From the IMG/VR virus record IMGVR_UViG_3300028797_000139, positions 27,055 to 91,054 of that record: DNA of 64,000 bases. One strand, written 5' to 3'. This document shows positions 1,775-62,100 of this stretch, one piece after another. The DNA comes from a virus. Lineage: Duplodnaviria; Caudoviricetes. The notes beneath the pieces are model-generated. The model saw only the letters and a program-made list of their open reading frames with translations, did not search any database and was not told where the DNA came from. Every line of letters begins with the position of its first letter. Position 1 is the first letter of the stretch. The translations under genes were made by a program, and so were the position numbers.

Positions 1775-2080
1775 GCGGGTGTGGTGGAATTAGTAGACAC
1801 AAGGGAAAGCTGTAAAGTGAGTCCCCTTTATACAGAAATGTATATCGAAAATCGGTTGAATTCGGCTGATGCTTGAGGGAAGCGGAGGGCGAGCCAAGCC
1901 AAAGATAAATCTTTGGAAGGTGTAGAGACTACCTGAGAAGTAAATCTTCTTAATAACAGGCAAGAGCGACCGATACCTAAATGCAATAGCACAAGGTAAT
2001 GAGATAGTCCAAAAATTTAAGTTTTGCTTAAAATCCCTCGACTTGATGTCGTGCAGGAGCAGAGCCTGTCACCCGCACCA
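1775..2080 (+). tRNA. trnL: tRNA-Leu(UAA) split by a group I intron (exons 1775-1806 and 2027-2080)
   Basis: joined exons give GCGGGTG/CACCCGC acceptor, AGGGA-CTTAAAA-TCCCT anticodon arm, long variable arm, ACCA end; atypical T-loop AGCAGAG. Confidence 0.85.
1807..2026 (+). ncRNA. compact (220 nt) ORF-less group I intron in tRNA-Leu
   Basis: P3 ATCGGTT/GACCGAT, R GTAGAGACTA, S GAGATAGTCC (P7), P9 CAAAA/TTTTG, terminal G; IGS GAGTCCC pairs with ligated GGGA|CTT. Confidence 0.85.
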
Positions 2081-3062: not shown

Positions 3063-3392
3063 ATGGCAAGGTACAAGTATTATACGGATGGTAATGGTCG
3101 GACGATTTGTGTTTCGACTTTTGCCAAAAAGATTGTTAAGGGGATTGCAAAGTGTAGTCCTGCTGATACCTATGATGACGATGTGGGCAAGAACCTTGCT
3201 CGACTTAGGTGCGACATGAAAGTTGCTAAGAAGCGACTTAACAAGGCAAAGGAAAGATGGACACAGGATTCTGATTTTTACATTCTCGCTCGTAAATGGG
3301 TGGATGAAAGTCAGAAGTATCTTGCAGATGCTTCAAGAATTTATTCTGAAGCCTGTAAGAATCTTGATGATTATGAAAATTCTCTAAAGTAA
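3063..3392 (+). CDS. conserved phage protein of unknown function
   Basis: AAGGAG SD then ATG at 3063; the longer track ORF overlaps tRNA-Thr and the promoter. Confidence 0.75.
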   Translation: MARYKYYTDGNGRTICVSTFAKKIVKGIAKCSPADTYDDDVGKNLARLRCDMKVAKKRLNKAKERWTQDSDFYILARKWVDESQKYLADASRIYSEACKNLDDYENSLK

Positions 3393-3399
3393 TTCTACG

Positions 3400-3570
3400 T
3401 GGACAGTATAGTTTATACTATAGCAGGCGTATGGGTGGATAAGTCCTATAAAGAAGCCCCTTGAACCGCGTCATGTAATTGCGTCAGTAATAACAGTAAT
3501 GGCAAAAGGTGGAGAATATTCTGTTTGACAAATCGGAAAAGACGGTTGGCAGTCTGGACAGACAGACACA
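3400..3570 (+). ncRNA. putative structured ncRNA preceding tRNA-Gln
   Basis: GC-richer non-coding stretch with tandem hairpins AATCG-GAAAAGA-CGGTT and GTCTG-GACAGA-CAGAC. Confidence 0.4.
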
Positions 3571-3578
3571 ATATATAT

Positions 3579-3653
3579 GGCGGGTTAGTGTAATTGGTAG
3601 CACAAAGGTCTTTGAAGCCTTATGAGGGAATTCAAATTTCTCACCCGCTGCCA
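3579..3653 (+). tRNA. trnQ: tRNA-Gln(UUG)
   Basis: GGCGGGT/ACCCGCT acceptor, AAGGT-CTTTGAA-GCCTT arm, TTCAAAT, CCA. Confidence 0.85.
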
Positions 3654-3658
3654 TTAAG

Positions 3659-3746
3659 TTAAGCAAGGGAGCAATAGAGTAATTAACTATTGAGATAACA
3701 AAGCCTTTCCTTTGAGCTTGCTTAATTAATTCGATTTTCTGAAAGG
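3659..3746 (+). promoter_or_regulatory. three-way-junction RNA leader with SD pseudoknot (copy 2)
   Basis: P1 TTAAGCAAG/CTTGCTTAA; P2 CAATAG/CTATTG, loop AGTAATTAA; P3 CAAAG/CTTTG, loop CCTTTC complementary to GAAAGG (3741-3746). Confidence 0.65.
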
Positions 3747-3761
3747 GGAAAACATAAGAAT

Positions 3762-4694
3762 ATGGCATTAATTAATCAGTATTCAAAAGAAGAATTAGAA
3801 AACATTGTAAAGAATAGTTATAGTTATCGTGAAGTGTTAATTAAACTTGGTTATTCTTGTGTGAATGGTGCGAACAATAATACATTAAAGAAATATTTGA
3901 ATAAATATAATATATCTGTTGAACATTTTACTTATTATCGAAGGAAAAATCAATATCAATTATCATTTGATGAAATTTTTTGTAAAAATTCGTTAGCCTC
4001 CCAAAAAAGATTAAGGGAAGCAGTTATTAAATATAATATTTTAATTTATAAATGTGAATTATGTGGTAATGAAGGAGTCTGGATGGATAAACCATTGTCA
4101 CTAAATCTTGACCATATTAATGGACATAATCATGATAATAGGATACAAAATTTAAGATGGTTATGTCCAAATTGTGATAGACAACAACCTACTTTTGGTG
4201 CTAAAAATTTACAAAAGTTAGAAAAGAATACGATGTTAATTCCTTTTGTAGGAGATTCAGTAGAACCAATTTTTTCAAGAATGGAAATTGTTGTGCCAGA
4301 TAGAGAAATTATCAAGAAAAAATTATATGATTATAAAAACTATACGCAATGTGCCAATTATTTTGGAGTAAGTGCTAATCAGCTAAGACGTTGGTGTAGA
4401 AAATATAATCTTCCCACAACTATTTCTATTGTTAAACACACTTCTATTGACGGGTGGGAAACAGAAAATTGGAACGATGCTTATACTCCTCCAATGCCAC
4501 ATTCAAAGCAAAATAAACCATGTGCAATGTTAGATAAAAACACCGAAGAAATTTTGCATATATTTTCTTCTCGAAGCGAGGCCGCACGTTTTTTGAATCT
4601 TAATCAAAACTGTATTTCTCATATTAGGGCTGTTTGTAATGGTTTGCGAAAAACGGCTTATGGATATAAATGGAAAAATATCGAAGATGATTGA
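3762..4694 (+). CDS. free-standing HNH endonuclease with HTH and NUMOD1 domains
   Basis: CELC...LNLDHINGHNHDNRIQNLRWLCPNC; C-terminal FSSRSEAAR...TAYGYKWK. Confidence 0.9.
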   Translation: MALINQYSKEELENIVKNSYSYREVLIKLGYSCVNGANNNTLKKYLNKYNISVEHFTYYRRKNQYQLSFDEIFCKNSLASQKRLREAVIKYNILIYKCELCGNEGVWMDKPLSLNLDHINGHNHDNRIQNLRWLCPNCDRQQPTFGAKNLQKLEKNTMLIPFVGDSVEPIFSRMEIVVPDREIIKKKLYDYKNYTQCANYFGVSANQLRRWCRKYNLPTTISIVKHTSIDGWETENWNDAYTPPMPHSKQNKPCAMLDKNTEEILHIFSSRSEAARFLNLNQNCISHIRAVCNGLRKTAYGYKWKNIEDD

Positions 4695-4723: not shown

Positions 4724-5572
4724 ATGGAGCAACTACAAATTTCATGCGCGAATATTTATAAAATAAGCAAACATGAAATCGCAAAAATTGATTTTGCTTT
4801 ATGCAAACAACCGACAGAAACTTTAGAATCGTTTTATAATCGACAAAGTATTAAGCCAGACTTGCTTATTAATGGTGGATTTTTTAATATGCAAAATGGC
4901 AATACATTGTTTACTTATGTCGATGAAAATAAAACAATTTCTTATACAAGTGAATTGTTATATGGGTTTGGCATTAATAATAATCAATTAAAAGCAGATT
5001 TCTATAATCAAAACTATAAAGATTTTATTAGTGCATATCCTATATTGATTAAAGATGGTAAAGCATTTTCGTCCTCTATAGGAAATGAAATTAACTATAA
5101 AGCACGAAGAACTGTTTTGGCTTATGATGATAATTATATTTATGTAATTGTTGTTGAAAGTCCGGGGATGAATTTTTCTGAGTTAAAACAAATGCTTTTG
5201 CAATTGTGTGTTACCCAAGCCATTAATTTAGATGGGGGCGGCAGTACACGATTGTTAGTGGAGGGGAAGGTCAAAACAAAGCAAACATATTCACGCCCTG
5301 TGGATAATGTAGTGGCATTTTATCTTCAGAAAAATTTAATTATATATCGTGTCCAAACAGGGGCTTTTAGCAACAAAGGTAATGCACAGCAGTATCAACA
5401 AAAAATTCAAAAGTTAAATGACACTATTGGTGCTGGTTACAAAAATGCTTATGTCAGATTTATTGATGGCTTGTATAAGGTGCAAGTTGGTGCGTTTAGC
5501 AACAAGGCAAACGCAGAAAAAGTGGTAAATGATTTGAAACAAAAAGGTTATAATAGCTTTATTACCACTTAA
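4724..5572 (+). CDS. phosphodiester glycosidase (NAGPA-like) with C-terminal SPOR domain
   Basis: INGGFF, ARRTVLA, AINLDGGGST motifs; YRVQTGAF/YKVQVGAF SPOR repeats. Confidence 0.85.
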   Translation: MEQLQISCANIYKISKHEIAKIDFALCKQPTETLESFYNRQSIKPDLLINGGFFNMQNGNTLFTYVDENKTISYTSELLYGFGINNNQLKADFYNQNYKDFISAYPILIKDGKAFSSSIGNEINYKARRTVLAYDDNYIYVIVVESPGMNFSELKQMLLQLCVTQAINLDGGGSTRLLVEGKVKTKQTYSRPVDNVVAFYLQKNLIIYRVQTGAFSNKGNAQQYQQKIQKLNDTIGAGYKNAYVRFIDGLYKVQVGAFSNKANAEKVVNDLKQKGYNSFITT

Positions 5573-5661
5573 TTTCTTCCCAATGGCTGAAGGGAATTAA
5601 AGGCAATGGTCAAGCCATTGTAAACCAAGAAGCCACTTTAATATATAGGAGGTAGGAATCC

Positions 5662-5931
5662 ATGTATATTTATAGCGAGAAGACAAAGAGACGCTATGAA
5701 ACTGTGGAAGAATGTATCAAGGCCGAAGAAGAGTACGATAAGGCACTTGCAGAAGAAAAGGAAAAGAAGGAAAAGCTTGCAAGTGAGCGCAAAGAACGGG
5801 CAAAGGAAGTAGAAAACGCCTTTAAGGAAGCTAATGATTTACTGAAGGCTTTCATTAAGGACTATGGAAGTTTTCATACCACTTATAATTCTACTTTCAG
5901 TCCCATTCGTTGGTTTGACCTTTGGTGGTAA
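5662..5931 (+). CDS. hypothetical coiled-coil protein
   Basis: ORF with AGGAGG SD. Confidence 0.75.
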   Translation: MYIYSEKTKRRYETVEECIKAEEEYDKALAEEKEKKEKLASERKERAKEVENAFKEANDLLKAFIKDYGSFHTTYNSTFSPIRWFDLWW

Positions 5932-5943
5932 AAGGCGTTTTAT

Positions 5944-5982
5944 AAAAATAACAGGGGTTAAAATTTCCCCTGTTATTTTTTT
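5944..5982 (+). terminator. intrinsic terminator
   Basis: AAAAATAACAGGGG/CCCCTGTTATTTTT hairpin plus T-run. Confidence 0.8.
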
Positions 5983-5990
5983 ATTTATGC

Positions 5991-6019
5991 TTGACAAAGA
6001 ATGTTTTTTATGGTATAAT
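5991..6019 (+). promoter_or_regulatory. sigmaA promoter
   Basis: TTGACA-17-TATAAT with extended TG. Confidence 0.8.
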
Positions 6020-25301: not shown

Positions 25302-28300
25302 ATGAATGATACTCAACTTCATTGTCACACGCACGGCTCTAATTTGCGTATGTTAGACTGTATAATTAAAACAAAAGATTTAATAGACAGGGCTGTTGAA
25401 CTTGGTATGAAAGCCGTGGCAATTACAGACCACGCCAGTATCAGCGAAGCTATAACTGCTATTAAATATTCTAAAGAATTACAAGCCAAAGGCGAAAATA
25501 TTAAAGTCCTTATAGGTGATGAAATTTATGTAGTGGATGATGTTAATGAAGTTAAAGCAAATTATATCCCCAAAGAAACAAAGTTTTATCACTTTATTCT
25601 AATTGCCAAAGATAAGATAGGTTTTGACCAATTGAGAAAAATAAACGCTGTTGGGTGGCAATCAAGTTTCTTTACGGGGAAAATGCGTAGAGTTCCTAAT
25701 GATAGGAAGCAAATAGAAAATATAATTAAAAATAACAAAGGACATCTACTTGCGAGTACAGCTTGTATTGGAGGAGAATTTGCTTCACAATTTCTTAAAG
25801 GTGAAACAAATAAGTCTATTGAATTTTTTAATTGGTGTGTAACAACTTTTGGTAAAGATAATTTCGCAATAGAAATCCAACCTTCAGTCAACCCAGACCA
25901 AATTAAATTTAATAAATGGGCTTATACTTTTGCCAAAGAACATGGTGTTAAATGTATATCTACTTGCGATGTTCATTATCTTAAAAAAGAACACCACGAT
26001 ATACATAAGGCTTTTCTTACAAGTCGCGAAGCCGACAGAGGCGAAGAAGAAGATTTTTATACCACAACTTATATGATGACTACAGAAGAAAAGCGTGAAT
26101 ATTTCAATTATTTTACAGATAAAGAATATGCAGAAATTGTAAATAATGGTTGGAATTTTGTAAAAGATGTAAAATTTTTTGATATGGAACACACCACCAT
26201 TATTCCAGAAAGAAATTTAGATGGCATAAATTTTTCTGTGAAACATACTTTTAAAAGTTGGTATGAAAAATATCCTTATATTCAAAACTTTGCTTATAGC
26301 GAATATGAACAAGATAGATATTTTTTATATATGGTAGAAATAGGATTTATCAACAAACACCAAGAATTTAATGAAACAAATATAAGTCGTATCGCGTGGG
26401 AACTTGAACAGCTTTGGTTAATTAGTGATAAACTTGGAGCAAGAATGTCAGCATATTATAATCTTGTAGATTATATTGTAGATATTTGCTGGGAAATTGG
26501 ATTTGTTGGTGTTAGTCGTGGTAGTGTGACAGGATATTATACTGCTTATCTTATTGATATGCAACAAATGAATCCCATCCAATGGAATCTTCCTGCCTAT
26601 CGTCACCTTAATGCAGAAAGAGTAAGTTGGCCCGATGTAGATTTAGATACTTCAGCCAGAAATCGCCCTAAAATTATAGCAAAACTAAGGGAAGTTTTTG
26701 GCGAAGATAATATTCTTAATATTTGCACTTTCAAAACAGAAACAACTAAATCTGCTTTTAAAACTGCCTGTCGAGGGCTTGGTATTTCTAACGAAGAAGC
26801 TGATTTCTTATCTTCCCTTGTTCCCGTTGAAAGAGGAAAACAATGGAGTGTCCAAGATTGCTTATGGGGCAATTCAGAAAAAGAAAGAAAACCTGTAATA
26901 GAATTGGTTAATAGAATTAAAGAATTAAAACAAGATATTGGCGTTGATTTAAGTGAATATGTGAAAATGATTGAAGGGCTTATATCTGGCATTTCACTTC
27001 ATGCCTCGGGGATATACATTTTTAAAAATGGTTATTTGGCACAAAATAGTTTAATGAAAACCCCCCGTGGCGATGATGTGACTTGTTGGGATATGCCTGA
27101 TAGTGATTATTGTGGTGGATTAAAATATGATAGTCTTACCACAGAATGTCAAGATAAATTAGAAGTATGTATAGAACTTTTAATTAAATATGGAAAAATT
27201 CAACCAAAAGCTACTTTAAGAGAAACTTACAATACTTATCTTCACCCCGATATTTTGGATTATACCACAACAGAAATGTGGGATAAATGTTCCAATGGAG
27301 AAATCACCGATTTATTCCAATTTATTACTCCTGTTGGTGGAAAATGTATTCAAAAAATTAAACCACACTCCCTTGAAGAAATGGCAAATGCTAATTCTCT
27401 TATGAGAATAAATGTAGAAAATGGCATCCAACCTGTAGATAAATTTCTTGCTTATAAGCATAATAGAAACCTATGGTATGAAGAATTAAAAGATTATGGT
27501 ATAACGAATAAGGAAGAAATAAAAGCACTTGAAAAAGTGTTGTCTTATTGTTATGGTTGCCCTTCTATGCAAGAAGATGTTATGGAACTTTGTATGGAAG
27601 AAAAGATTGCTGGATTTGGACTTGCTGATGCAGATAAAGCACGAAAAATAATTGCGAAAAAGAAAAATGAAGAAGTTGATTTATTAAAAGAAAAATTTTA
27701 TAACGCAGTAAAAGATAAGGGTAATTCTATAAATATTGCCAATTATGTTTGGGAAGAATGTATAAAACCTCAACTTAATTATTCCTTTTCTAAGTGCCAT
27801 GTAATGCCGTACAGCGTAGAAGCATTGCAAGAAATGAATTTATATTATCATTATCCTTCTGTATATTGGAATTGTGCCGCACTAATTGTTAATGCTGGGT
27901 TAAGCGATAATTCAAATGGAGATGAAGAAGAATATGATAATAAAATAAACAAAACAACAAACTATGGTAAAATAGCACAAGCTATTTATCGAAGCAAAAA
28001 TTTTGGCATAAATGTATTGCCTCCTTCTATTAATAATTCTGAAACTTCTTTTACCCCCATAGAAAAAAATAATTCTATTGTTTTTGGTTTGGGTTCGATA
28101 GCTGGCATCAATACACAAATTGCTCAACAAATTATTAATAACCGTCCTTATACATCTTTTGATGATTTTTATAGAAAAAACACCTATACCAATTCTCTTG
28201 TAACCCCTTCAAAAATTATACAGTTAATTAAAGCAGGATGTTTTGATGAATTTAATCTTGATAGAATGAAAATCATGAAACGATATTTTGTTTTGTCAAA

Positions 28301-31719: not shown

Positions 31720-31932
31720 TTGGAAATTATTTTATATTCAACGCATTGTCCTAAATGTAATATTCTTGAAAAGAAATTAAATGAAAAAAACATTTCTTTT
31801 AGATTAGAAACAGAAATTGAAAAAATGCCAAAGCAAGTAATAAATTCTAATACAGTACCTTGGCTCAAAGTTAATGATTGCTTAATGAATTTTGGCGAAG
31901 CTGTGAAGTGGGTGAATTCTTATGGAAATTAA
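31720..31932 (+). CDS. glutaredoxin/NrdH-like redoxin
   Basis: CPKC and TVP motifs; upstream of nrdD. Confidence 0.8.
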   Translation: MEIILYSTHCPKCNILEKKLNEKNISFRLETEIEKMPKQVINSNTVPWLKVNDCLMNFGEAVKWVNSYGN

Positions 31933-34664
31933 CTTAAATCTTTCCAAAGATTTTGAAAGATGTTTAGATGATTTGAAAAAGAAATATGGGGAAGACTTTG
32001 AATATATTAATGGCGTTCATCCAAGTCAATTAGACTTTTCTGAATTTATTAATAATTTTGTTCAAAAAGATACTTTAGCAGATGTCAGTATTGACCCTAA
32101 TTCTAATGCTAACAATCGTGATATTCGGTCTTTTATGACAGAAAAAGGAAAAAGTAGTGATAAATTGTTTGCCTTAAATAAAATTTTTATCACTATTAAA
32201 AAGCAATGGGGATTAAGAACAGCCAAGCAGTGGTTAGAGCAGGAATTTAATAAAGGTTTATATTTGAACGATTCAGCCACAGCCAGTTATTTCCCGTATT
32301 GTTGGGCTAACGATTTAACAAGATTAGCTACAGAAGGTTTATTTTTCTTAAAAAATTATAATAATCAACCTCCCAAGCATTTAACTACTTATTTCGATGA
32401 TGTCATTGAATTTGTTTCTTTCTTATCTAATCGTCAATCGGGAGCTGTCGGTTTACCTAATGTTTTAATTTGGGCCTATTATTTTTGGAAGAAAGATGTA
32501 GTAGAAGGGTATTACATGAAAGACCCTGATTATTATCTAAAGCAACAATTTCAAAAATTTATATTTAGATTAAATCAACCTTTTCTTAGAATTGACCAAA
32601 GCAGTTTTACTAATGTATCAATTTTTGATAGATGCTATTTAACCGAATTATTTGGCGATATAGAATTTCCTGATGGTAGTTTTGCTATTGACCAAATTGA
32701 AGAATTAATTAATGTGCAAAAAGTTTTTATGGAAGTGGTTAGTGAAATAAGAGAAGAAAATATGTTTACATATCCCGTTGAAATAATAGCGGCCTAACGG
32801 GGCGACCCGTTTTGCAAACCCTGTGAACTCAGGGAAACTCTGAATAATACACCTTCTTTAAGCGGGGGTGATAAAATGGCAAGAAAAATAGGCATACCAG
32901 CCGAAAAGATACTTGAATTGCACAATCAGGGATTATACGACCAAGAAATAGCAAATATTCTCGGATGCGAAAGAAGCAATATCACTATTAGACTAAAGAA
33001 GCTCGGAATTACAAATCGCAGAAGCAAAATCGAAGATATTAAACTTAGAAATCGCATTAGTGAGTCGCTAATTGGAAGATATTGCGGTGAAAATAATCCA
33101 AATTATAAAGGATATAACGACGAAAAACAAATAGCGCGTGGAATTTTTAAGACATTCTCCAAACGACTAATAAGAAATGCGGATTACACTTGTGAATTTT
33201 GTAAACGTCGCGGTGGAAATATGGAATGTCACCATATTAAACCGTTCAACATTATCTTCACCGAGTTTATCAACAATAGGTACGATGGCAACATCAATAC
33301 TATCTATTCCCAACTGATGCAATACGACGATTTTATCAATGAAACTAATATGGTGGTGCTGTGTGAACAGTGTCATTATGATGTGCATTATTCAGACAAT
33401 CCTGAACTAAGCCCATATAGATGGGAAAGCGCAACGACTATCTCGAAAGAGAGTACATCGTAAGCTATTGACGATGGAAGCGCAGGGGGGCTAATTCTTA
33501 GTCCATGATATAGTCTGCTCTCTACGGCGACGTAGAGCTGTTCGAAAGAACGGCAACGGCGTAGCGAACCGTTGTGAACACAAAGGATTAACATATTCGC
33601 TTCTTTATAAGGATGGCAAGTTCGTCGATGAACCCTTTGCAAAATGGTGTTCAAGCCATAACATCAAGTGGAGCGATAGCAACTTCTTTGTAAGTGATAA
33701 TGTTGGGGTTTTGTCTAATTGTTGCAGACTCTTATCAAACACCCAAGAACTTGACCCCTTTATTAATTCCATTGGTGGAACCGCCTTATCTGTAGGTTCT
33801 TGTAGAGTTAGCACAATTAATCTTGCCAGAATTGCTTACGAATCTAAATTTAATAAAAAGAAGTATTTAGAAATACTTAAAAATCGTGTTGAACTAAATT
33901 GCAAGGCATTGTATTCTATGCGTTATATTTTACAACGTAATATAGAAAAAGGTTTATTGCCTAACTATCAAGCAGGTGCCGTAGAATTAAATAAACAATT
34001 TTGCACCATTGGCGGGATAGGAAATTTTGAAGTTATGGATATGTTTGGATTAATTAAAACAGACGAACTTGGTAATAAATTTTATTCTAATGAAGCTATA
34101 GATTTTACATTAGAAATTCTAAATATCATTAATGAAACAAAAGATAATTTTGTGAATATTCATAATTGTGATTTTAAGTTTAATCTTGAAATGATTCCTG
34201 CTGAAAATTGTGCAGGGGTTATGGCAACTGCTAACAATTTAATTTATGAAGATAATAAATATTTTATTTTATCTAATCAATGGATTCCTTTAATGGAAAA
34301 ATGTACCATTCAAGAAAAATGTCATTTAGGTTCTTTATTTGATAAACGCTGTGGTGGTGGATGTATAGCCCATATTAATACAGAAGGACGCTTCCCAACA
34401 GAAGAAAGTGCGTGGCAAATGTTGAACTATGTAGCTTCGCAAGGTGTAATTTATTTTGCATTTACTACCAAAATTTCTGTATGTAAAGATAAACACGCTT
34501 TTATAGGCACTTCCACTTGTCCTAAATGTGGGCAACCTATAGCTGATACTTATTCAAGAGTAGTTGGATTTTATGTACCTGTATCTTCTTATCAAAAAAT
34601 TCGTAAACAAGAATTTGATAAGCGCCAATGGTATAATGCAATGTCAATGGATAAAATGATATAA
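31922..34664 (+). CDS. nrdD: class III anaerobic ribonucleotide reductase, exons 31922-32778 and 33587-34664 (644 aa predicted)
   Basis: spliced FTYPVLTYSLL junction; PPKH, QSGA, NCCRL, PAEN, glycyl-radical SRVVGF. Confidence 0.92.
32779..33586 (+). mobile_element. group I intron in nrdD carrying an HNH gene
   Basis: P1 CCGU/GCGG with U.G; R GCAACGACTA, S GATATAGTCT; ends in G; removal restores frame. Confidence 0.9.
32876..33463 (+). CDS. intron-encoded HNH endonuclease (HTH + HNH)
   Basis: CEFC, ECHHIKP, LCEQCH; 3' end runs through the intron core. Confidence 0.85.
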   Translation: MARKIGIPAEKILELHNQGLYDQEIANILGCERSNITIRLKKLGITNRRSKIEDIKLRNRISESLIGRYCGENNPNYKGYNDEKQIARGIFKTFSKRLIRNADYTCEFCKRRGGNMECHHIKPFNIIFTEFINNRYDGNINTIYSQLMQYDDFINETNMVVLCEQCHYDVHYSDNPELSPYRWESATTISKESTS

Positions 34665-56100: not shown

Positions 56101-59100
56101 GGGTAGAACTCATAGAGGTTTGTATGCCAAAAATTTCTAAAGCGTCAGCTAAAGCCCCAAGCAATCCTTCATCTACTTCAAATTCTTCACCAATTTTATC
56201 CCAATCGGCACTAAGAATTTGAATTCCATCAGAAGTTTCCACAAAAGAAGCAATTACATCATCATTACTATCAACTAAATCGCGTTGTGTACCAATAATG
56301 CCATTTACTTCATCAACATAAGGGCCAATTTCTTTTGCCGCACCAGATAAAGCAGATATAACATTAGCACCATAATCTTCTCCATTACCAGAAAATACAG
56401 CACTCCAAAATTCATTACCAAGCAACTCGCCTAATGCCTGATAATCATTTTGTAACTCATCCTGTTTATCAGACGGGAAGAATAGTTCGATACCTGCTTG
56501 AAATGCTTCAGAACCAATAAGACCTTGCTCATAAGCGTCTAAGAAAGTCTGAAAAGCAGTAGCATATTGCTTAAAAGTATCGCCTTTTTCAGAAGAAGTG
56601 GCATCTTGAAATTCCTGTAATTTTTGTGTAGCCGCAATTAATTCATCTTCTAAAGTAGAAAATGCCGCGATTTGTTCATGAATAGATTGTGTAAATCCAC
56701 TTGATGCACTATCAGCAGAAGTTAAAGATGCTTTCCATTCACTAATTTTGGTTTGCATTTCACTAACAGAAATACCATATTTATCTGCGGCTTCCTTCAA
56801 ATCCATAGTTCCTTGTAAATATTGAGAAACTAATTGTGAAAAGATTGCACCTTCTATTTCGTCTGTAAATGCTTCACCAAGTTGTTCTTTTGCTTCAATG
56901 ACAGTTTTATTACCTTTAAGAACAGCATCAACAACATTTTGTTCATATTTATTTAAGCTATCTGCATAAGTTTGATACTCATTGTTAGCAGTCCTAATGG
57001 CATCTGTAACAGAATTAAAACTATTTTCTGCGCTATAACGCCATTCTTCTAAGTAAACAACATTTTCAAGTATTTGCGAATTAGCTTCGGTTAAATTTTC
57101 GCTTAAAATATCTCCACCAGTAAAAGCCGCATATTCAACTTGCAAATCATGCCATGCTTGCATCGCTTCTTCTTGAGCTTCAAGTTTTGGATGCTCACCA
57201 TATGCATCTACATAATCACGAAAATGTTGTTCAATTTCAGCTATTCTTTCACTAATTTGTGTTTCTGTATCTAAGCGATACTCATTGGCTTTAATTTCTG
57301 CATCAGTAAGAACAGCCATTCTTTGTTTGTATTCTTCTTCTTGACGCAGTAAATTAACATATTCGTCACCGCCAGCGACTACTTCGTCCCACACTAAACT
57401 TTGTTGATATTCTTGTTGTAACCGAAGTAATTCTTGATATTTGGCTATGTCAGCATCCAATGTCGCACTACCAACAGAAATAAATCCATCAGAAGTTTCA
57501 GCTAATTGTTGTTGAATATTTAATAATTCTTCGCTTTCTTCTGCCGTTAATGCTACTTTACTTTTTAATTCATCATATCTATCAATTAAATCTAAAGTGG
57601 CAGTATTAGAATCAATTTTGCCTTGAATATCTTCTATATTAGATAAAGATTCGTTAATTCTATCTAAATCAGTAGGTAAATTTTTAATATAATTTACTAA
57701 TTTAACAATAAGTGTAATAACAGTAGTGATAATCATAATTGGCCCTAAAGAAGTGCCAAAAATACCACCCATTAATCCTTCTTTACCACCTATTGAAGTC
57801 AAAGCCTCTGTTAATGTCATAGTCTTAGAACTAACTAAAGACATTACAGTACCTAAATTAGTAAATTGTCCAATAAGATTCGGCAACACTTTGCTTGCTT
57901 TAAGTAAGCCTGTTGCACCCCAACCAATACCAGTTAATAATGTAATTTGTGTAATTATTTGTCCTAAACCAGTATCGGCTAATTTTAGAAAACCATCAGC
58001 TAAAGATAATAAAGAAGAAATTAATTCTTTATTTATAACATCTGTAGCCAAAGATTGAAAATCTGCTTTAAGCAGGTTTGTTTGAGCTTCGCTTTATATT
58101 TGTTAAGAAGTGCTAATTCTTAACTTGTAAATATTACAACTCTCCCTTTCAGGACGAGAATTGACCATATCTTAGCCATAAGGCTCCACCTTTTTTGGGG
58201 ACAAGCACTTTCCCCTACTCCTTAAAGGATGGTCGATGAACCTTGAACTATATATTTTAGTCCCTTGGATGCGGATTATCCAATCTATCTTATTGTTACT
58301 ATACCTTCTGCATTACCAGTTGCCATTATATTGTCACCAATATAATTTAGTAAAGATAGCTCTAAGGAAGTTCCCGCAGTTAAAGTGGTTTTAAGTAGCC
58401 CCATTTTATTAAGGCTCTCCATATAAGCCTCGTTCTCCTGCATTGCGGAACCAGAAGAATTAAGCGCAGTATTTGTAGCTTCGATGGCAGTATCAAAGTT
58501 CTGCATTAAAGCGCCAAGTTGTACGCTTTGATTTGCCCCGGCTTGAATATTTAAAAAGTATTTTTGTTCATTTTCAGATAGGGTGTCCCAAATCTGTGAA
58601 ACATCATATAATGTATCATATAATGACCTTAATTGTCCATCTTGGTCATAAAGTTGAATATTATTTTGGTTATAGAAATCAATAAGTTTTTGGCCTGTAG
58701 AAGATGTTTCGTCCAAAATTTGATTATAACGGCTCTGGACTGAGACAAGTCAATATTATTACCCAAGTTCGCTACTCTTGGACGGAAAGAATTTCCCCAG
58801 AATCGTTTTATATTCTTCTGAATGTTCTATTTGCCAAAACGGTAGTCTTATCAAAGTTATTCCATTTTGTAAACAGAATTGATTCTTCACACTATCGTTA
58901 GATTTTAATATATTAAAATTTTCTTCTGCTTCTTCTTTAGTAGCACCAAACCATGTGACAGGCTTAAAATGTTGCAAACCATCAACTTCAATGCAAATAT
59001 TTTTGTCCGATACATAAAAATCAAATTGCAACAATTTTCCTTTTTTGCCACGGCAACCATCAAATATCTTTTCTTTTGTATAGATTATTTTATTTAATTT

Positions 59101-62100
59101 TAACCAATCTTCCACCGCTTGGGCAATTTTAGATTGTTTTATTCTGCAAGCATTACATTTATCTTTATGTTCATAAATTAAATGACTTGCGTCTACTGTA
59201 AAATCTGCACCACAAGCACATCTTGCTTTAAGATAATATCCGGTTCCCTTAAATTCTTGGTCGTATATATAACATCCATTATTACGCTTTTCCATAAGCA
59301 AGCGAATATTATATAGCGAATAAGGATTTCTCACAGAAAATTTTTCAAAGGTACTGCCCTGTAAAAATCTGGATGCAGTAATAATACCCTTATATCCTTC
59401 TTTGTCTTGCACTTCTACTTTTTCTTTAGTTGACCGAATATTATTACTCAACAATGTTAAACCCATTTCTTTCGCTTTATCATAATAAACGGACATGGGC
59501 GTTCTTCTGTTTTCAGTATAATTTGCTTCATATCGAATTTTGCGATAACAAGTCGCGCAAACTTTATTGTCAGCATGAACAAAATTGGCCCAAGTAGTTT
59601 TATATGTTTTTCCACAAAAACCACACAAAAATACTAATTTAGAATTACCGCTTAAATAATCTTGCTTTTTTGACAACAGAACGGTATTAGTAGTCACATA
59701 ATTGTCCATATAATATATTATATTTTCCCAAAAATATGTATTTTTAATACTAAATGGTTTGCTATATGCTTGTGTCTTATCTAAGGCATCTTCCACCGTC
59801 CGCAGACTTCGATTAAATAAATACCCGTCTACATTTTTACATTTCATAGGGGTATCGACGCTTTTATAAACGGTTGATAATAATTCTAATTTAGCCAAAG
59901 AAAAAATATATTTGGCTTCCTCCAATGTTCTTCTTTTCATAAATTCCTTCCCCTTATGCTTTCACATAAGATTAGATTATTTCTTCACCCCTGATTAAAG
60001 GGGGTCTGCCATTTCGATTTAAGGGAATTTCACCCGCCAGCTTTGGCCCTACTCCTATTGCGATTCAGTCGCCAAGGGATAATCGTTTGACACACTCCTG
60101 TTCGGAGCTTCGCGCCCAAAGACCCATTATTACAACACTTAGGCTTTTAACCTTATGTCATCCTTGCTGTTTTTAACACTTTCGCACATTCACGCTCGTC
60201 AATCTTTCAAGACCACGTTGTAGTCGCAAGGCTTTAGGGATTACTGGGTTTAGACAAATACTTATAATGCACATTACTGTACACTTAGGGACTACTCTCC
60301 CCGTGCGGTTTTAGCACCGTTTCTATTGATTTCTGTTATTGCCGTCATGAGACCTAAGGTTTGTTCGTATGTAACACCACCAATAGACAAGGCGGCACTG
60401 GCTTTTCCGATGTTCGTTGCTACGTTTTTGTTTTGCAAGTACGCTACGCTTGCAGAATATTGGATAAATATTCCTTATACTTTCATATAAGACCAGCATA
60501 TTTCTTCATCCTTTATTAATTAAAGGAGTCCCCCATTTTCAATAGCCTTATAGCGATTAACTATTTACTTTATGCGTTTGACACACCCCTATTCAGGGCT
60601 TCGCGCCCAATGACCCATTGCACAAACACTTAGATTTTTCAATCATATGCCATCCATACATTTTTTAATACTTTCGCGCTTTCACACTTACGCTTATTTC
60701 ATCGTTATGTTGTAGCAGTATGGCTTTAGGGATTACTGGGTTTAGAGGGAAGCTAAGTGCATATTACTATACACATGACCTATTTTATTAAGTCAGCACT
60801 ACTCACCGAAAAGTTATTTGAGACTTCATTATTTTATATTGATTATAGTTGCCAACTATAATTGATTAAATAATTTAATCACTTATAAATTTCTTTATAA
60901 GAATCGACCATATCTTTCACATTTAATCTGTGATAGGGCGTTTCGGAAATAGGCACTTTTTCCTACTCTACTCGTTTCGTGCTTATGCCTTATTCTATTC
61001 ATAATATTATATCATAAATAGTTACATTTGTCAAGTTAATACTTGATTACTTTCGATGGTCTGTGAACCTTACTGCATATTTCTATGTAGTCTTGGATGC
61101 GGATTGTCCAATTTTTATCTTTGTTACTATACCCTGAATCATTACTTCAAGCCCTTAAAACATTACTGCTTTAAGTTAGTAGATAAAACTCTAAGGATGT
61201 CCCCGTCAATTAACCCTATAGCCGCCAATTTTTAGTCAACGGCATCAATGATATGCTCGGCATTTTCTGCTTCAATATTAAACGCTTTCATTTGGCTAAT
61301 AATAAAGTTAGCAGATTCGCCAGCACTTAATGCTTCATCGGCTACATTTTGATATTCCGTAGATATTAAAGCTAATGTTTTACTATCTTCTTCATTGAAA
61401 CCAGACTTTTTGAAATTAGTAGCCGCATCTACCATTTCGCTTGCAGTTCTGGCAGTAATTTGTCCTAATTGTCCTAACTCTTCAACATATTGTTCTAATC
61501 CTGAGCCACGGAGGTCTGACACCTTTTTAACGTATTGTTCAGTTAAAATTTAACTTTCATTAAATACCGATTCGTAACATCGTACCCGTTATATACATAA
61601 CAGCTTTATATTTCTATAAAGACCAGACTATATCTTACTCTTTTATTAAAGAGCCACACCACTACCCAACGATTTTAGGGATTATAGTCGTTGAACCTTC
61701 CTCTTTTCGAGGCTTGGATGCTGATTATCCATTTTATAATACTTAGGATTTAACCATATATCATTTTATGATTTTTTTCTGCTTTCGCCACTATCACGCT
61801 TATGTTATTTCACCATTACGTTGTAGTATCATAAACTTTAGGAAGTCCCAGCAATTCAATGTGTTTATATTTTATCTCACGATAAAATAGAGCCTAAATT
61901 AACTCAGTTATTGCCGCATCTAATTCATACGTTTGTTCTGCCATACTTTCTGCCACATCAATAAACTCACGCATAATAGCGTTAGCAACAGAAATAGACA
62001 TTTCAAAACCCGAAGTATCGGCATGAACCCCAACAGTTACAGGATTAGTATTTAGTTGACTTTGTATATCGGCTGTGTCCAGTTTTACTTTTGCCAAAAT

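Follow-up and report, generated by a model that had tools for sequence, protein, structure and literature searches.

Phage group I introns with a probable Watson-Crick purine-pyrimidine pair located at their 5' splice site, in a tape-measure gene and in a tRNA-Leu gene

Tape-measure genes of Bacillus cereus-group prophages carry the group I introns TMP-IVS1, TMP-IVS2 and TMP-IVS3, and their description restates that a U precedes virtually every group I intron (Tourasse and Kolsto 2008, PMC2504315). Here we describe intron 4 of the tape-measure protein (TMP) gene in a window of 64,000 nucleotides, which is the 3' 64 kb (positions 27,055 to 91,054) of the 91-kb uncultured virus record IMGVR_UViG_3300028797_000139. 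The gene is located on the minus strand of the window and is split several times by introns. Judged from its sequence and from those of its relatives, intron 4 probably splices after a guanosine, G60299, which is Watson-Crick paired to C60290 of the internal guide sequence (IGS). Resemblance to the TMP-IVS introns is found in its IA class, in the presence of several introns per tape-measure gene, some with homing endonuclease genes, and in homologous cores with P1 and IGS adapted to different sites. Unlike them, intron 4 has G at the last exon position (-1) in a G-C pair, and the multi-intron region gave no match to any deposited phage in a megablast search.

A survey of 5292 bacterial tRNA introns reported U at -1 and G at the last intron position (omega) in 98.5% of raw calls, with a C(-1) class as the only real exception and no purine class listed (Williams 2020, bioRxiv 10.1101/2020.01.27.920355). 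The Leu.3Cg tRNA introns of Proteobacteria from the same survey share with intron 4 a Watson-Crick pair, instead of U.G, at the 5' splice site (bioRxiv 10.1101/2020.01.27.920355). In Leu.3Cg the pair is C-G, with a pyrimidine at -1 and a guide G, whereas in intron 4 it is reversed, with the purine in the exon and the pyrimidine in the guide. Two mitochondrial introns with C.G were reportedly described by Hur and Waring in 1995; the activity of these and of Leu.3Cg introns is either disputed or putative. Another system to compare is the intron of T4 sunY (nrdD), an IA-type phage intron with an open reading frame (ORF) placed 3' of the core, in which terminal pairings bring the distant 3' site back. 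It differs from intron 4 in being canonical, with U.G and omega-G, and to our knowledge has no sequence similarity to it. A limited literature search revealed no published natural group I intron with a purine at -1. As far as this search reaches, purine(-1) exceptions are new relative to the C-G exceptions on record, while phage TMP introns themselves are known.

Intron 4 is a genuine IA-type group I intron of 1548 nt, extending from 60298 to 58751 on the minus strand. What the initial annotation observed is all borne out by the sequence, but its interval of 58750-60303 included a few exon bases. The intron and its flanking exons are composed of the following parts (here and below a caret marks a splice site):

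60299..60422, minus strand: TMP exon between introns 3 and 4, ending ..GCA CGG GG (translation, tblastn of a homologue, base identities)
60298..60302, minus strand: 5' strand of P1, GGGG^A, four exon G and the first intron base A60298; pairs with 60291-60287 in 5/5 orthologues tested
60287..60293, minus strand: internal guide sequence AGUCCCU; C60290 pairs with G60299 as the predicted splice-site pair
60266..60286, minus strand: P2 hairpin, 8 pairs, 3 with compensatory changes (pair counts)
59953..60298, minus strand: ribozyme core P1-P9, IA-like with P7.1/P7.2 (Rfam, RNAalifold, pair counts)
60258-60253 with 60010-60005, minus strand: P3
60248-60237, minus strand: P4-P5
60108-60094, minus strand: P6
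60079..60084, minus strand: P7 5' strand, GAUUAU
60004-59988, minus strand: P8
59975..59980, minus strand: P7 3' strand, AUAAUC, with J8/7 UGAAGAA just before it
59970-59953, minus strand: P9
58759..59940, minus strand: 393-aa intron ORF, flanked by P9 and the terminal hairpin (ORF list)
58763..58781, minus strand: 3'-terminal hairpin (P9.2-like), CCAAG-AGUAGCGAA-CUUGG; the stem covaries in six sequences
58751..58762, minus strand: 3' tail GUAAUAAUAUUG, final base omega-G58751; orthologues end ..(U/A)UG followed by A CUU
58412..58750, minus strand: TMP exon after intron 4, starting A CUU GUC UCA (..G-LVSVQSRYNQ..) (translation, tblastn); its 3' end is U58412, where intron 5 has its canonical 5' splice site

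The joined reading frame was determined by comparison with uninterrupted TMP homologues, which had been returned by a protein search that took the large downstream exon as query. The 5' border on the minus strand reads ..AAA ACC GCA CGG GGA GAG UAG UCC CUA AGU, containing G60299 and A60298, and the 3' border ..GGG UAA UAA UAU UG58751 A58750 CUU GUC UCA GUC. Residues 5-46 of homologue P0003 align to 60426-60301 and residues 48-160 to 58749-58411 in tblastn, and P0004-6 align in the same way. Intron-less proteins have ..NGSRSAR-A-LVSVQSRLNQ.. in place of ..NGAKTAR-G^LVSVQSRYNQ.. of the window, and P0003-P0006 are free of indels across the site. Exactly one codon spans the junction, and therefore the mRNA must read CGG GGA CUU (R-G-L), the frame also proposed by the initial annotation. 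Three splits give this product: G^GA with terminal U, GG^A with terminal G58751, and GGA^ with terminal A58750. None of these colinear splits has U at -1, which upholds the earlier suggestion that the 5' exon ends in a purine and that the U.G pair is lacking. The intron-less allele in contig L008 reads AGA GCG CUG GUU at this place, and because of this the intron-bearing alleles can be said to carry their own flanking exon bases (GG GGA CUU).

To collect orthologues, contigs were scanned for a conserved word of the core, and the hits were then compared by blastn and tblastn. A scan of metagenome contigs with a 17-mer yielded 60 loci, about a dozen of them with a related intron according to blastn and five with an intron at the same site; the remaining loci look like chance matches. 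The window and these five contigs make up a set of six same-site introns:

L007, 4300-5853: ORF of 393 aa
L037, 3171-4724: ORF present
L024, 2172-2567: intron of 396 nt, no ORF
L073, about 400 nt: no ORF
L188 (full contig of L058), 3289-4654: ORF of 306 aa; the most distant

One additional fragment (L062) is 99% identical and covers the 5' side only. Cores are 68-88% identical to that of the window (blastn), irrespective of the presence of an ORF. Exon ..GGG(G) is kept in all six orthologues, as are the C in position 0 of the IGS and a G preceding the 3' exon. Five close copies follow the pattern (C/A)GG GGA - loop - (A/U)GUC(C/U)CU AA P2 ... (U/A)UG A - CUU GU, where the loop is GAGU, AACAC, GACU, AAUA or AACU and both strands of P1 are kept. 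Sequence and length variation of this loop (60297-60292 region) is expected because it represents L1. For the upstream Arg codon the five close orthologues use CGG or AGG, its third base always being G, which keeps P1; in L188 the codon is AGA. Joins that are in frame and free of stops within about 40-60 nt of both borders were enumerated for the window, L007, L037 and L024 (L073 was left out, its upstream frame being interrupted). The sole join with a terminal G and unchanged length shared by these four orthologues ends the exon one base before A.

Closest to intron 4 in structure is a neighbouring intron of the same gene:

60423..60790, minus strand: paralogous intron 3, 368 nt, no ORF; GACU^UA..UAGGUC, canonical U.G, omega-G60423

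The two introns are largely identical in P3-P8 and have the same J4/5, J8/7, P2, P9 and terminal hairpin; the last hairpins are homologous and the 3' tails equal in length. Intron 3 with its orthologues (L073, L056, L187) also has the 4-bp exon part of P1 and the P1-P2 distance of intron 4. The difference lies in the homologous splice-site pair, U.G in intron 3 (GACU^..GGUC) and G-C in intron 4, changed on both strands. No signature in J4/5 or J5/4 sets the introns with G-C apart from relatives with U.G: both groups have UAAU as J4/5, J5/4 varies without correlation to the splice-site pair, and no change in J8/7 tracks it either. A scan of genome contigs detected one short contig, L187 (Anaeroplasma sp. 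metagenome-assembled genome (MAG), 1218 nt), with an intron-3 orthologue only. The label of this MAG hints at a Mollicutes or Firmicutes gut host. Terminal hairpins in all copies of introns 3 and 4 (60452-60434 and 58781-58763 in the window) keep a UA(G/A)CG loop on a covarying stem, and this loop may represent a tertiary contact bringing the distant 3' splice site to the core.

Between the two purine splits considered in the initial annotation, four independent arguments favour GG^A with a terminal G over GGA^ with a terminal A: the guanosine site in P7, the distance of the splice-site pair from P2, the contiguity of P1 and P10, and the borders of L188. The top pair of P7, G60084-C59975, adjoins J6/7 and is invariant in 5/5 orthologues, and by its position is presumed to be the guanosine-binding pair. 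A terminal G is expected because this site is a normal G-C. G precedes the 3' exon in 6/6 orthologues. Concerning distance, four intron-3 orthologues and the canonical TMP intron of L009 (CUGGU^..GCCAG) have the guide G opposite U(-1) exactly 6 nt 5' of where P2 starts. The same position is C in 6/6 intron-4 orthologues (C60290 in the window), and in this register the exon part of P1 is 4 bp long in both introns. In place of U at -1 in a U.G wobble there is thus G60299 paired to C60290. The exon pairs of P1 are G60302.U60287, G60301-C60288, G60300-C60289 and G60299-C60290, so that P1 GGGGA/UCCCU of the initial annotation is recovered as 60302-60298 with 60291-60287. U60291 pairs with A60298 as an extension of P1 and then with A58750, followed by G60292-C58749 and A60293-U58748 (P10). 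P1 and P10 are contiguous, GGGG/CCCU and ACU/AGU in the window, and GGG/CCC and CUU/AAG in L188. The borders of L188 are ..AGA GGG^AAAC..AAG-CCCCCU-P2 and ..AUUAUGG^CUU AAU, and in either register both -1 and omega are occupied by G. Compared to L188, the window type has one more U in the guide and one more A opening the 3' exon, a matched addition that fits U60291:A58750 as a P10 pair and not as a splice-site pair.

The same data bear on a cut one base later, after A60298 paired to U60291, with the intron ending in A58750 (omega-A). Arrangement GGGGA .. UUGA CUU leaves this choice ambiguous in five orthologues, the family of the tRNA-Leu intron in the window (see below) uses GGA^ paired to U, followed by AG:CU, and intron 2 of the window seems to have a terminal A in contrast to the G of L007. 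We regard this alternative as unlikely, as it contends with the invariant G-C of P7, leaves the conserved G before A unexplained, and requires U60291 where the distance in canonical paralogues points to C60290; moreover, L188 has no A at either border, yet has G at -1 and omega.

Somewhat less probable again is a wobble with the strands swapped, in which G60299 pairs with U60291 in the register GGGG/UCCC. This register can be formed in the window, L007, L037, L024 and L073, and in L007 an extra A-U would extend it. It is impossible in L188, where G and not U is found 5' of the C run. It also has one pair fewer than the G-C register, its splice-site pair would close the loop, and P10 would no longer be contiguous with P1. 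Furthermore, a swap of U-G to G-U abolished the reaction of the Anabaena intron (PMC12355055).

The fold of intron 4 was assessed by RNAalifold consensus on five orthologues, with P7 added by hand and pairs counted subsequently. P1, P2, P3-P9 and IA-type P7.1/P7.2 were recovered, with the hand-added P7 completing the P3/P7 pseudoknot of the group I core. Helices 13-16, located between P7 and the 3' strand of P3 (P7.1/P7.2), show covariation in each, as in the IA class. Standard pairs occupy 99.1% of 458 cells, and 28 of 92 pairs change on both sides, compared to 0-3 when partners are slid by 1-3 columns. When partners were shuffled within columns, 0/500 shuffles reached the observed values. 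The third P7 pair also covaries, from U-A to C-G. The fold of intron 4 is under selection.

The intron ORF has its own ribosome-binding site, GGAAGGA (59951-59945), and matches PHROG 559 (E 2e-44), 9084 and 7140, which carry annotations as HNH, homing or intron-encoded nucleases. No Pfam family was matched, and a sequence search of the PDB gave no meaningful match. By these similarities the ORF appears to encode a homing-endonuclease-like protein. It takes the position that a small P9.1 hairpin fills in ORF-less L024. An endonuclease-related ORF, the lack of such an ORF in the introns of L024 and L073, and an intron-less allele in L008 suggest that intron 4, a probably functional IA-type group I intron, is mobile; intron-less alleles of the L037 type are seen for neighbouring sites. 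Orthologues of intron 3 in L187 and L056 carry after P9 an endonuclease ORF related to that of intron 4 in the window. Because these two introns have the related ORF and intron 3 of the window has none, it looks as if the endonuclease moved between sibling introns located at different sites of TMP.

Several points weigh against splicing after G60299. Splicing and the exact bonds are deduced from DNA, all sequences are metagenomic assemblies with no cultured host or phage, and the A duplicated at both borders in five orthologues makes GGA^..A fit their sequence too. The core scores 25.5 bits (E 1.5e-4, in a 431-nt stretch) against the RF00028 gathering threshold of 50 bits; large IA-type insertions (P5 extension, P7.1/7.2) are poorly modelled. 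In model ribozymes, replacement of U.G is strongly deleterious: besides the Anabaena intron, inactivated by G-U (PMC12355055), loss of activity with a C-G pair is reported for the Tetrahymena intron (Williams 2020, bioRxiv 10.1101/2020.01.27.920355). That six diverged phages keep G-C in an essential gene is notable because bench work on other introns predicts poor function.

These considerations can be extended to a decaying or non-splicing insertion, with TMP broken or made in pieces and the odd site without meaning. The use of assemblies, the indirect case for splicing and the apparently defective omega position of intron 2 in the same gene would agree with this. We nevertheless hold it to be very improbable, as frame, junction, P1/P10 and 28 covarying pairs have been preserved in all six diverged phages, four of which have intact endonuclease ORFs. 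An in-frame stop is positioned two codons into intron 4 and the downstream part of TMP has no start, while the tape-measure protein is essential for tailed phages. Finally, a cryptic canonical pair, with the 5' cut after U60294 (GGGGAGAGU^) and the 3' cut after G58746, giving R-G-E-F-S of the same length, is in frame, stop-free and has U(-1) and omega-G in the window and L037 (GAGU^..UUG^UC; RGEF/RGDF), but is hardly credible: L007 and L024 have A there, the conserved L-V of LVSVQSR found in all homologues is destroyed, U60294 lies in the P1 loop without a guide G to pair with, and P1 cannot form.

Returning to the cut after G60299, the reaction would start with the attack of exogenous G behind this base, where the G60299-C60290 pair sits in place of the U.G wobble of its relatives. 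The guide would hold the 5' exon, and U60291-G60292-A60293 would switch from the first base of the intron to ACU of the 3' exon (P10). With omega-G58751 occupying the normal G-C guanosine site in P7, the exons would be ligated to CGG GG^A CUU. The 5' site would be chosen through the constant geometric relation of P1 to J1/2-P2 (a helical ruler) and through the G/C-rich P1, and not through recognition of the wobble. A choice of site by geometry is proposed because the near-identical core of intron 3 uses a normal U.G. The ribozyme may dock P1 by its backbone and the fixed link to P2, cutting at a fixed helical position whatever the pair, and the strong GGG/CCC helix may compensate for the lost wobble contact. 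We infer this as the simplest model of site choice. The U.G wobble rule looks dispensable in intron 4.

A second intron of this kind is carried by a tRNA gene of the same window:

1775-2080, plus strand: tRNA-Leu(UAA) gene (ARAGORN, introns allowed)
1807..2026, plus strand: group I intron of 220 nt in tRNA-Leu(UAA) (ARAGORN; Rfam 36.2 bits; five orthologues)

The junction AGGGA1806^C2027UUAAAAUCCCU falls between nt 31 and 32 of the tRNA. A1806 at -1 is paired to U1822, the last base of the intron is omega-G2026, and P10 is CUUA/UGAG. An alternative 3' junction at 2040-2042 was rejected, as ARAGORN finds no tRNA with such joining. Relatives were collected by scanning viral contigs with a P7 pattern and by blastn; among 113 phage introns fetched by this pattern, most of which are interrupted by ORFs, splice pairs were read only for tRNA-Leu relatives and a few canonical introns (L169, L176). 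Five relatives (L100, L087, L111, L141 and L165) all show ..GGA^...G^CUUAAAA. Anticodon stem and guide covary, AGGGA being accompanied by UCCC(C) and GCGGA by UCCGC, and because of this covariation in P1 the A-U splice-site pair is fixed. A register with an A.C wobble was dismissed, since it would set G opposite G in L141 and L165. This family of six appears to constitute a second, independent lineage with a purine at -1. The group of purine-site introns supposed in the initial annotation can thus be described as conserved lineages, six TMP introns with G and six tRNA-Leu introns with A at -1. In the spliced tRNA-Leu(UAA), a GCAGG/CCUGU stem bears the non-standard T loop AGCAGAG in place of UUCRANY; normal GGUUCGA T loops are found in relatives L087, L111, L141 and L165.

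As pointed out in the initial annotation, GGGACTT occurs in both ligated products and AGTCCC in both guides, the TMP copy lying at 60293-60288 on the minus strand and that of the tRNA-Leu intron at 1820-1825. The proposal that this shared target reflects a requirement replacing the wobble was not borne out, because the two junctions are 1 nt apart and relatives lose both the 7-mer and the hexamer. GGGACUU is cut at different bonds, GGG^ACUU in TMP and, 1 nt further 3', GGGA^CUU in the tRNA. Among tRNA relatives the words drift to CGGA^CUU with AGUCCG, and in one case to CG-UCCCC; among TMP relatives, L073 has UGUCUC, and L188 has GGG^CUU with AAG-CCCCC. All 12 purine-site introns have in common only G at -2 and -3, which is also present in canonical L009 (CUGGU^) and L030 (GGGU^). 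We take the shared words to be most likely a chance agreement of two G/C-rich P1 helices, the other explanation offered initially. Exchange of a P1 module between co-resident introns of one phage is possible.

Group I cores detected with Rfam model RF00028 are distributed in the window as follows:

61911-61604, minus strand: TMP
61262-60883, minus strand: TMP
60633-60474, minus strand: TMP
60150-59953, minus strand: TMP intron 4
58435-58140, minus strand: TMP
1802-2033, plus strand: within the tRNA gene
33136-33537, plus strand: RF00028 core

TMP intron 1 scores 62 bits against this model. In TMP intron 2 (61238-60832, minus strand) the 5' site is canonical, GCCGU^ forming U.G with GCGGC. A60832 precedes its 3' exon UAAUGAAG, at the position where the L007 orthologue has G (UUUAAG^UAAUGAGG); for the window copy, an omega-A intron, a defunct copy and an assembly error are all conceivable. 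It is followed by a short exon of just 41 nt (60831-60791). In the related phage of L008, an intron at 4880-6010 with an ORF of 238 aa is located 6 nt downstream of the intron-2 site of the window. Its borders are AAU CAG GUU^..AAAAAG^UCA AAC, with canonical U.G and omega-G. The core at 33136-33537 belongs to a split gene on the plus strand (31922-34664), taken as an anaerobic ribonucleotide reductase with C-terminal ..CGGGC.., which also contains an HNH-type ORF (32876-33463) and recalls the T4 nrdD (sunY) intron.

Few features of group I introns are as conserved as the U.G wobble, and it serves as a rule in their annotation. It also guides the design of trans-splicing and RNA-circularising ribozymes, whose targets follow U or at best a pyrimidine. 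We lean slightly towards the view that there are phage lineages with Watson-Crick purine-pyrimidine 5' sites, G-C in TMP and A-U in tRNA-Leu, and that U.G is no mechanistic necessity, the site being set by helix geometry. Such introns, in phage genomes as well as in tRNA genes, will be misplaced or overlooked by intron finders that demand U(-1). Near-identical natural ribozymes with U.G and with G-C would make the contribution of the wobble testable by simple swaps, to which the A-U family adds. If the proposed cut is true, the same core works with U.G in intron 3 or G-C in intron 4, and such cores could become a natural starting point for ribozymes freed from the need to cut after U.

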